DNA from: a virus
IMG/VR virus record: IMGVR_UViG_3300030098_001779
Location: 1 to 64,000 of that record
Reading direction: 5' to 3' (one strand)
Length of the DNA stretch: 64,000 nt
A program made the position numbers and the translations under genes. Positions 45,161-47,603 of the stretch are shown one piece after another; position 1 is the first letter of the stretch; every line of letters begins with the position of its first letter. The notes under the pieces were generated by a model that was not told the origin of the DNA, did no database searches, and was given only the letters and a program-made list of their open reading frames with translations.

Positions 45161-45422
45161 ATTTAATAAAGAAAAAGCTCTAAAAAGTTTAGATGTATTA
45201 TTTGATATATTTAAAGATATATCTACAAATGCTGACGAAGTTTTTAAAAAGAGATGTCCTTATAAAAATGCAAAGTCTAGATGTACTGCTAAATTTGAAT
45301 GTAAAAATCAATATAATATTAAGAAATTTGGAGAAAGCCCTGTTTGTACAGGATCAGATTTACTTGATTACAGACCAGCGTGGATACCAGATAAAAGATT
45401 AAATTCTAATAATGAGACTTGA
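45126..45422 (+). CDS. Cys-containing hypothetical protein
   Basis: CPY...C...C...C. Confidence 0.65.
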   Translation: MKSSKHQLMTSKFNKEKALKSLDVLFDIFKDISTNADEVFKKRCPYKNAKSRCTAKFECKNQYNIKKFGESPVCTGSDLLDYRPAWIPDKRLNSNNET

Positions 45423-45792
45423 TACTAAAGTAATTAAATATAGGAATCAAAACCCTTTTATGTCAACACGTCAGATTGCAAGAGAGGTTGGAGCTTCTGT
45501 AAGTTGGGTGCATAACATATTAAAAACAGCTAACTTACCTACAAACCCACCTAAGAAGAAAAAGATTACTTATATCTGCCCAGAATGTAAACAACTTGTT
45601 AATGCTAGACGTAAATTCTGTAGTGAAAAATGTAAATACAACTATAGAAATCCTTTACTTACTTGTCATTATTGCCACGCAAAGTTCAGAAGATCTAGGT
45701 CAAGAGTAATAGCAGCCATAAAAAGAGGCTGTGATCACATATATTGTGACCAAAAATGTACAAATAGAGCAAAAAGAGACAAAATTACTTGA
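45412..45792 (+). CDS. HTH plus Zn-finger DNA-binding protein
   Basis: STRQIAREVGASVSWVHNIL; CPEC...FCSEKC; CHYC...YCDQKC. Confidence 0.75.
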   Translation: MRLDTKVIKYRNQNPFMSTRQIAREVGASVSWVHNILKTANLPTNPPKKKKITYICPECKQLVNARRKFCSEKCKYNYRNPLLTCHYCHAKFRRSRSRVIAAIKRGCDHIYCDQKCTNRAKRDKIT

Positions 45793-45818
45793 CACGCCTA
45801 CCCCAAATATGATATAAT
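45789..45818 (+). promoter_or_regulatory. sigma70-type promoter
   Basis: TTGACA-N18-TATAAT. Confidence 0.8.
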
Positions 45819-45824
45819 TAATAA

Positions 45825-45956
45825 TGTATTAAGGAATAAAGTTATTATTCTGAAGTCGCCCTTGACTACAACTGAGAGTATCAGGGGCAAGAGAGAGAAA
45901 CTCAGAACTCTCTCTAAGACATAGTGCGAATTAATAACATTTATTCCATTAATACA
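45825..45956 (+). ncRNA. Candidate structured RNA with kissing loops
   Basis: ~26-bp closing stem plus two hairpins with complementary loops CUGAG/CUCAG. Confidence 0.6.
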
Positions 45957-46035
45957 ATGATACGGATGGGGAGATGCAGATAAATCATTGGATTACTGCA
46001 CTCCCCTCTCTATAAATTAATTATTAGGAGGAGAT

Positions 46036-46446
46036 ATGACAATAGCAACGAAAACAGCTGACCCTTTTGACATTTTTGCAGACTTTTTTAGTGATAAGTG
46101 GGTGGGTTCAACAATCCACAAGTATCCATTGGATGTAATTGAATCAGATACAGGGTATGAAGTCAAAATTTCACTACCGGGTGTAGAAAAGGGTAACCTT
46201 TCTGTAACCTTAGATAAAGACACTTTAATAATAGAAGCAACAACTTCTGAAACTAAGAGTGATAAGAACAAATATTTATACAGAGGTATAAAGACAGGTT
46301 CTTATAAAAAACATATTTCAGTAAAAGATTATGGTGTAGATTCTAAGAAGATTAGCTCTAGCTACAAAAATGGAATCTTAACTATAACTTTACCTAAACA
46401 TAAAGAAGCTAAACCTCAAACAATACAAGTAGCCATGGAGAGTTAG
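46036..46446 (+). CDS. hsp20: Small heat-shock protein (Hsp20 family)
   Basis: PLDVIE...LPGVEK...YKNGILTITLPK. Confidence 0.9.
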   Translation: MTIATKTADPFDIFADFFSDKWVGSTIHKYPLDVIESDTGYEVKISLPGVEKGNLSVTLDKDTLIIEATTSETKSDKNKYLYRGIKTGSYKKHISVKDYGVDSKKISSSYKNGILTITLPKHKEAKPQTIQVAMES

Positions 46447-46449
46447 CAA

Positions 46450-46983
46450 ATGGAGATAAACGATGAATTGATTAGGCAATGGGAACCTAAGATTCATAAA
46501 ATGCTCCAAACATCGTATGTAGTAGGGTATGATCGAGAAGATTTAGCACAAGAACTTAGAATCGCTATTATGAAAGCGGCTAAGGCATATAAAGCAGACA
46601 GAGGTAGCATCTTTCATACCTACTTACATACCACGATGGTAAACACGATCAGAACTTTAATCAGTAAGGCACAGAAAAAGCCTATGACTGTAAGCTATGA
46701 TGAAACATTTTTAGACTATGAATCTGATTTTTTACCTGATTTTATAGCAAAAGCTATTGGATATGAGGAAGAATGGGAATTACTAGAACTAAAAGATGAA
46801 TTATCAAAGTTTAATTTATCTGAACGTGAGAAAAGATTTGTTGAGTTAAGATTAGAAGGTTGGACTATGGATGAGATATCTGATGATATTGAGAAATCTG
46901 CATACAGAGTGCGTCAAAATCTTAGAACAAAGGTAGAGAAGATATTTTATGGTCAAGAGAACAAAGAAGAAGAGTCAATATAA
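46450..46983 (+). CDS. Phage sigma70-family RNA polymerase sigma factor
   Basis: Region 2 REDLAQE..AAKAY..RGSIFHTY; region 4 LSEREKRFVELR..GWTMDEIS. Confidence 0.85.
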   Translation: MEINDELIRQWEPKIHKMLQTSYVVGYDREDLAQELRIAIMKAAKAYKADRGSIFHTYLHTTMVNTIRTLISKAQKKPMTVSYDETFLDYESDFLPDFIAKAIGYEEEWELLELKDELSKFNLSEREKRFVELRLEGWTMDEISDDIEKSAYRVRQNLRTKVEKIFYGQENKEEESI

Positions 46984-47380: not shown

Positions 47381-47603
47381 AAAAGGGGGGTTGACACGGA
47401 CCCACACAAAAGTGTATAATAATAATATAAATAATATATATAGAGTTATAAGTATACATAACAAAACTAAACATATAACTATTATTGGAACATATGATTG
47501 TATTAATGCAGCTAAATTAATGGCAGATGATCTAGCTAATAAAGATGTTAAGTGTTATGTACATGGAGATGATAGTAGAGTTTTACACATAGCAGGAGAG
47601 TAG
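47367..47603 (+). CDS. Hypothetical protein (start uncertain)
   Basis: Contains promoter TTGACA 47391-N18-TATAAT. Confidence 0.5.
   Translation: MKRSRKGGLTRTHTKVYNNNINNIYRVISIHNKTKHITIIGTYDCINAAKLMADDLANKDVKCYVHGDDSRVLHIAGE

Follow-up and report, generated by a model that had tools for sequence, protein, structure and literature searches.

The window analysed here comprises the first 64 kb of an IMG/VR virus record of 82,411 bp that is rated complete (IMGVR_UViG_3300030098_001779). This report deals with the RNA leader of an operon that begins with an hsp20 gene. The leader is found in a gap of 243 nucleotides (nt) between hsp20 and an upstream open reading frame (ORF) of 126 amino acids (aa) with helix-turn-helix (HTH) and Cys-rich character (45412-45792). 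It is a genuine structured RNA of the transcribed strand and lies outside any described family. Its inner part of ~106 nt, referred to as the core, is an optional leader module that is restricted to one clade.

Genomic context of the leader

The G+C content of the window is ~33%, and ORFs of at least 200 aa are located exclusively on the plus strand. On the upstream side, a tail-fiber-like protein of 1325 aa with an S74 chaperone domain is encoded. Downstream, hsp20 is followed by the gene of a sigma-70-family factor, two small ORFs and the genes of a DnaB-like helicase, a primase and PolA (assigned with Pfam and PHROGs). Structural genes are present upstream and replication genes downstream, and thus the gap divides the two sets. 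Besides PolA, the phage encodes the large subunit of a terminase (TerL).

The sigma factor has 897 homologues. Many of them are marine-metagenomic, including Tara sequences, and they are often located on contigs of 80-90 kb. Blastn against GenBank phages gave zero matches, and tblastn with PolA gave nothing above 28% identity. Thus, these searches reveal no close cultured phage and indicate no host.

The upstream 126-aa ORF shows a sub-threshold match to a Tc3-transposase HTH (E = 4.7e-4, below the Pfam cut-off), and the C-terminal half of its product is rich in cysteine. It terminates within the -35 box of the hsp20 promoter.

Promoter and transcription

The promoter of hsp20 (Table 1) scores 12 of 12 against the consensus and has an extended -10 element. 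The predicted +1 position is T45825 or G45826. This promoter is kept across the relatives of the phage, even in those with different leaders. In the window, ~30 promoters fit the pattern TTGACA-18-TGnTATAAT at 11-12 of 12, and as a class of early promoters they are very uniform for an uncultured phage. Nearly all of these promoters reach a Shine-Dalgarno sequence (SD) within ~15-30 nt, and the folds are weak (-2 to -14 kcal/mol over 70 nt). Among them, a long and strongly folded leader is present behind the hsp20 promoter only.

The near-perfect promoters are distributed over 1326-61945 on both strands, nearly all with the 18-nt spacer and the TG extension. A second perfect TTGACA-18-TATAAT promoter is located within the operon at the junction of a 143-aa and a 78-aa ORF (47391-47420), ahead of the helicase gene. 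The 3' strand of the basal stem P1 of the leader contains a weak promoter-like site (TTAATA-16-TACAAT, 9 of 12; 45931-45958). Transcripts from this site would begin just ahead of hairpin 2.

The leader is present as stand-alone contigs in two metatranscriptomic runs of one study. The contigs are identical to the window and place the leader in RNA libraries. One of them (X16) corresponds to 45826-46030 and starts at the predicted +1, the other (X15) corresponds to 45836-46031, and both end in the SD. Neither run covered 45300-45825 or 46032-46357. The k-mer depth is 17.6 and 10.4 for the leader contigs compared with ~5.5 for pieces of hsp20 and the sigma gene; as the contigs are assembled and come from a single study, ends, gaps and depth are not readable as RNA ends, silence and abundance, respectively. 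The contig pattern is only a lead that the leader may build up as a separate RNA.

Table 1. Features of the hsp20 leader and of the first two genes of the operon (positions in the window).
Feature	Position	Strand	Basis and details
Early sigma-70-type promoter	45789-45818	+	TTGACA 45789-45794; 18-nt spacer with TG; TATAAT 45813-45818 (TGaTATAAT)
P1, 5' strand	45825-45852	+	Folding, alifold, pair counts; 2 compensatory pairs (AU to UA, GC to AU)
Core (upper P1, internal loop, three-way junction)	45837-45942	+	Presence/absence indel of ~106 nt; boundary ambiguous by 1-2 nt (AT microhomology)
Junction-closing helix GUC/GAC	45855-45857 / 45918-45920	+	C-G to A-U in 3 of 7 variants
Hairpin A	45858-45888	+	11 bp, 1-nt bulge, loop AACUGAGA (45870-45877); U.G to U-A among variants
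Hairpin B	45890-45915	+	8-9 bp, loop AAACUCAGAA (45898-45907); folding, alifold, pair counts
P1, 3' strand, with single-nucleotide bulges	45925-45956	+	Folding, alifold, pair counts
Hairpin 2	45960-46013	+	Central helix GGGGAG 45968-45973 / CUCCCC 46001-46006; -22.6 kcal/mol; folding; 3 compensatory pairs
SD and hsp20 start codon	46027-46038	+	SD AGGAGGAG (46027-46034), ATG at 46036; not leader-paired in minimum-free-energy and centroid structures
hsp20, gene 1 of the operon	46036-46446	+	Pfam HSP20, 2.2e-19
Sigma-70-family factor gene	46450-46983	+	Pfam Sigma70_r2, 1.2e-10

Fold of the leader

The predicted fold consists of the stem P1, which carries a three-way junction, and the separate hairpin 2 (Table 1). 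P1 comprises ~26 bp with three bulges of 1 nt each, and a small internal loop is located above it. The strands of the three-way junction contain 0, 1 and 2 unpaired nt. Hairpin 2 is followed by an AU-rich spacer and then by the SD.

The minimum free energy (MFE) of 45825-45960 is -47.0 kcal/mol, whereas 200 dinucleotide shuffles give -21.9 +/- 3.5 kcal/mol (z = -7.2) and no shuffle is as stable. For the whole leader an MFE of -70.6 kcal/mol was obtained (z = -7.0). In the junction domain, the centroid is identical to the MFE structure. A first-pass annotation of the window had described a bulged stem of ~26 bp starting at the predicted transcription start, the GUC/GAC helix, two hairpins closed by it and a further hairpin holding CUCCCC. 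All of these elements are present where it had placed them, CUCCCC being paired with GGGGAG. The fold confirms that a structured leader heads the hsp20-sigma-replication operon directly behind a consensus promoter.

The leader contains no meaningful ORF. An upstream ORF in hairpin 2 was considered and rejected, as its frame differs between natural variants.

Natural variants and covariation

The locus was recovered from IMG/VR and metagenome contigs by protein-anchored and pattern scans, which yielded seven distinct junction-bearing leaders. In these variants, 99.4% of the pair cells hold standard pairs, and shifting the partners by 1-3 columns lowers this share to 42-50%. Six pairs are altered on both sides, two of them in P1, one in the GUC/GAC helix and three in hairpin 2. 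Further pairs alternate between G-C or A-U and G.U, and the G.U pairs fall on the plus strand. In the L002 type, one additional nt in each strand of hairpin B gives one more base pair. The bulge of hairpin A is relocated in the L008 type with 11 pairs retained. The lengths of the indels among the variant leaders are not divisible by three. In the basal 15 bp of P1 the variants do not differ, hence no covariation is observed there. The seven variants represent only ~3 lineages and the mean column identity is 94%. Thus, the support for the structure is good but shallow.

An optional core in the leader

The core is absent in a sister lineage, which is represented by five contigs from different samples (L011, L012, L103, L104 and L106). 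These contigs share the promoter, the first 11-13 nt of the leader, hairpin 2, the SD and hsp20 with the window. Between these parts just UGUAUUAAGGAAUUCUAUUAAUACA is present, which is the base of P1 closed as a small stump hairpin. Hairpin 2 shows further compensatory changes in the L011 type. Downstream, the sister contigs are collinear with the window over 4.2-7.6 kb at 89-90% identity without gene gain or loss (blastn), and collinearity is observed on both sides of the indel. This presence/absence polymorphism is newly found. A gain of the core in the window lineage is as parsimonious as its loss by slippage in the sister lineage.

The promoter and the hsp20 or the sigma gene are also kept in relatives at 75-77% sigma identity and in several at ~50%. 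Their leaders have 50-60 nt and one small hairpin. Some hairpin between the early promoter and the hsp20 SD is present in all relatives. Covariance model R1 gave nothing credible at 69 sigma-linked loci. Among the other relatives, only L042 (z = -1.3) and L067 (z = +0.25) have a long gap ahead of the sigma gene, and neither gap is significantly structured. The gap in L042 (840-1030) holds a tRNA-like stretch (GGUUCGACUCCUC T-arm) and no structured leader.

A 68-aa ORF encoding an FmdB-like zinc ribbon is located between the 126-aa ORF and the promoter in L106 (3134-3336), L011, L012, L102, L103 and the 75-77% clade. It is missing in the window lineage (at window position 45792). The window has the junction without this ORF, L102 has both, and L106 has the ORF without the junction. 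The two indels thus combine independently and the junction is not tied to the FmdB-like gene. Upstream ORFs were therefore rejected as partners of the junction.

The stump hairpin has a bearing on a possible role of the locus at the DNA level, either as an operator for a dimeric regulator (e.g. the upstream 126-aa HTH protein) or as part of a replication origin beside the replication genes. The arms of the stump form a 25-bp near-palindrome that is centered on GAATTC and extends from +1 to +25, a classic operator position. The invariance of the basal 15 bp of P1 would suit such a role, as would the minus strand, which folds nearly as well as the plus strand (-44.7 vs -47.0 kcal/mol). In the window lineage, however, the half-sites are ~120 bp apart. 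Furthermore, the compensatory changes in the inner hairpins and the G.U pairs fit only RNA of the plus strand, and the stretch occurs in RNA libraries. A DNA-level element is very unlikely.

Searches for further copies of the element led back to the same locus. R1 finds a single copy across the whole 82-kb genome, and the core pattern matches only the known locus in IMG/VR. Scanning IMG/VR with an Hsp20 profile returned the same contigs again. An SD-anchored pattern detected six loci among the metagenome contigs, with no new junction variant. Two patterns gave 0 matches in 185,579 prokaryote genomes (one per species).

These results bear on a neutral or selfish origin of the core, which is doubtful, though it deserves consideration. 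The core would be a 106-nt insertion in the apex of a leader hairpin resembling a miniature inverted-repeat transposable element (MITE), or the sister lineage would have lost a dispensable palindrome by slippage. The polymorphism is clean, with AT microhomology and imperfect terminal inverted repeats of ~15 nt, and the operon functions without the core in a circulating lineage. Size and architecture are like those of Correia/ERIC-type elements (PMC2649163, PMC2229807). The arms and the AT at both junctions could be the terminal inverted repeats and the short flanking duplication of a MITE; a slippage deletion in AT-rich DNA would also leave a 2-nt repeat. The multiple dispersed copies of a MITE are not observed, as the core is single in the 82-kb genome and has no counterpart elsewhere in IMG/VR or, with the two patterns, in the prokaryote genomes. 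In addition, the compensatory changes in the inner hairpins and the invariant terminal loops argue for selection on the RNA and against decay.

Search for known RNA families

At gathering thresholds, Rfam gave nothing for the whole window. A permissive search (E up to 10; 45600-46200 and 45800-46060) returned a sub-threshold match to Ocean-VII and noise, with no match to a packaging RNA (pRNA), a riboswitch or a thermometer. The Rfam search that the first-pass annotation had called for therefore assigns the leader to no catalogued family.

The cmscan match to Ocean-VII (RF03092) covers 45875-45920 and scores 19.5 bits (E = 0.0014 on 261 nt). The gathering score is 53.5, and true members of the family score 57.8-69.4 bits. 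Similar to Ocean-VII, the leader has GAGUAUCAGGG, an AGAG-led purine/pyrimidine hairpin and a terminal AGAC, and both originate from marine viral sequence. At the true loci, in contrast, the shared stretch is unpaired and lies within a larger RNA of other architecture. R1 gave no match to the true Ocean-VII loci. Because of the sub-threshold score, the different context and helices and the negative result with R1, homology to Ocean-VII is not claimed.

In true Ocean-VII members, the 41-nt motif is only the 3'-terminal part of a longer conserved non-coding RNA (at least 230 nt), in which several hairpins covary and the loop GUUCGACUAAGGGAC is conserved. This larger RNA is located at L127:8323-8760 (-), L141:18-455 (-) and L159:4801-5238 (+). 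In L159, a TTGACA-17-TATAAT promoter directly precedes it. Models of Rfam do not include the larger RNA.

Position of the Shine-Dalgarno sequence

Bacterial hsp20 genes often have thermometers of the ROSE and fourU types in their leaders. The first-pass annotation had proposed that the leader is a riboswitch or thermosensor, and that CUCCCC of hairpin 2 could alternatively pair with the ribosome-binding site (RBS) of hsp20. Such a sensor would control translation or transcription of Hsp20 and the sigma factor. The CU-rich strands CUCCCCUCU and CUCUCUCUAA are partly complementary to the RBS, and the best duplex between leader and RBS has -10 kcal/mol. For the pairing of CUCCCC with the RBS, -8.3 kcal/mol is obtained compared with -22.6 kcal/mol for hairpin 2. 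The alternative is thus weaker by 14 kcal/mol and is not supported.

Neither the SD nor the AUG is part of a leader helix in the MFE and centroid structures (Table 1). Between 4 and 42 °C, the predicted accessibility of the SD stays at 0.30-0.34. When the first 40 nt of hsp20 are added to the fold (46020-46072), the SD is predicted to be weakly paired to codons 9-12 (GACCCUUUUGA). The accessibility reflects this pairing, and the partner is not conserved (Pro to His in some variants).

A riboswitch fares no better. The element is found in one narrow clade and is absent from near relatives and all more distant relatives. Its junction is tight and offers no ligand-sized pocket. No expression platform competes with an aptamer, as the 26-bp P1 overlaps neither hairpin 2 nor the RBS, and switching of so long a stem is implausible. 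The permissive Rfam search adds no matching model. Taken as a whole, a riboswitch or RNA thermometer is highly improbable.

Complementary loops of hairpins A and B

CUGAG in the loop of hairpin A (45872-45876) and CUCAG in the loop of hairpin B (45901-45905) had been recognized as complementary in the first-pass annotation. A duplex of five Watson-Crick pairs is indeed possible between them, at -6.8 kcal/mol. For random loops of leader composition, the chance of a 5-pair complementarity is P = 0.027, which is modestly unusual alone. Both loops are identical in all seven variants and there is no covariation signal for the pairing. As the loop pair never varies, the variants say nothing for or against loop-loop pairing. 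Variation affects 1 of 19 columns in the terminal loops and 10 of 23 among the remaining unpaired columns (Fisher P = 0.006), although the relatedness of the sequences weakens this test. The conservation suggests that the loop sequences are constrained. Neither loop is complementary to other transcripts of the phage beyond chance-level 9-mers.

In a rival reading, the junction domain or the leader of ~205 nt would be released as a free trans-acting RNA, which would either self-assemble head-to-tail by intermolecular kissing of CUGAG and CUCAG, similar to phi29 pRNA, or titrate a host or phage factor. This is unlikely, although several observations are consistent with it. The layout is like that of pRNA (bulged end helix, tight junction, complementary loops), and no other unpaired positions are as conserved as the terminal loops. 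The contigs from the RNA libraries comprise the leader alone, which is a lead only, and P1 could serve as an excision site. Against a free RNA stand the lack of covariation in the loops, a 5-pair match that chance would produce with the probability given above, and the lack of extended complementarity to phage transcripts. Furthermore, the core is missing in the sister phages and thus cannot be an essential part of a packaging motor. The phage has TerL and PolA, and no pRNA match is found in Rfam.

In a more specific version, the junction domain would be excised at P1 and form rings or chains by intermolecular kissing, acting as an accessory scaffold, decoy or sponge and not in packaging; this would be a pRNA-like assembly of RNA alone in a large marine phage that uses a terminase. 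We consider this version a long shot. Should the loops pair between molecules, the leader would extend pRNA-like self-assembly beyond the phi29 group for the first time and offer RNA nanotechnology a new building block.

A possible role of the core in the early mRNA

The core is insulated from the RBS, dispensable, present in a single copy and structurally selected. An accessory cis-acting element is thus the simplest reading. We tentatively propose, at somewhat less than an even chance, that the core is a lineage-specific, non-essential module that acts in cis in processing or stability of the early mRNA and is no sensor.

According to this proposal, host RNA polymerase would make the early mRNA from the consensus sigma-70 promoter. 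The basal part of the leader, common to the whole clade, comprises a hairpin at the 5' end and hairpin 2, which is very stable. With the optional module of ~106 nt at its apex, the 5' hairpin becomes a 26-bp duplex capped by the three-way junction. The P1 duplex would represent a double-stranded site of the RNase III type, which would be bound or cut by the host enzyme. As predicted, P1 provides the nearly uninterrupted double strand of at least about two helical turns that characterizes RNase III sites. The junction domain, probably compacted by an intramolecular contact of CUGAG and CUCAG, would form a nuclease-resistant body. Hairpin 2 would head the downstream message and protect it. RNase III action, a stabilizing effect of the module and intramolecular kissing are what we infer from this arrangement.

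Several points weigh against the proposed role in the early mRNA. The three single-nucleotide bulges of P1 could block RNase III. The statistics of loop conservation are weak with seven variants from only ~3 lineages. The element could be neutral. Because a viable sister lineage does without it, it can bring only a small or conditional benefit.

If the module alters the fate of the early mRNA, the near-identical phages would provide a natural experiment with and without it ahead of the genes that start infection. The module would then show how phages acquire and tune control at the RNA level. At present, it is a well-supported, narrowly distributed and dispensable orphan RNA motif of an uncultured phage, and its immediate importance is limited.

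Comparison with known systems

The first-pass annotation had drawn an analogy to the pRNA of phi29 (RF00044; layout as described in PMC4201828). The resemblance in layout stands. Both RNAs are phage-encoded and lie behind an early promoter, and both have a bulged helix of the 5' and 3' ends, a compact three-way junction and two arms with complementary loops. Membership in the pRNA family, on the other hand, is not supported, as there is no RF00044 match, the genome of 82.4 kb encodes TerL and PolA and the core is dispensable. Phages of the phi29 group are protein-primed podoviruses of ~20 kb, whereas the phage studied here is four times this size. The pRNA is encoded at the genome end and the leader element in the middle of the genome as part of an mRNA leader. 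Both pairing loops are terminal in the leader, whereas pRNA uses an internal (CE) loop as one of the two.

Purine and lysine riboswitches share with the leader adjacent junction hairpins, the terminal loops of which are able to pair and lock the fold. In contrast to these riboswitches, the leader has no binding pocket (0, 1 and 2 nt in the junction strands), and its P1 has 26 bp instead of 4-8 bp. An expression platform overlapping P1, wide conservation and an Rfam match are also lacking. Similar to ROSE and fourU thermometers, the leader is structured and located ahead of a gene of the hsp20 family. It differs from them in that the SD is outside the leader helices, no melting is predicted and no model matches.

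RNase III sites and 5' stabilizers occur in the early mRNAs of T7 and SP82. Together with the Correia elements of Neisseria and ERIC elements, these sites are among the closest known parallels to the role in early mRNA proposed above. Long inverted-repeat hairpins that have inserted in transcripts, such as Correia elements, can be bound by RNase III, which cuts or protects them (PMC2649163). The module differs from Correia/ERIC elements in being single-copy, with no dispersed family found, and in having a conserved three-way junction in its interior instead of a simple loop. Common to the module and these systems are an insert of ~100-130 nt with long terminal inverted repeats, a duplex in the mRNA leader, presence or absence between near-identical genomes and a location in front of an early operon of a phage.

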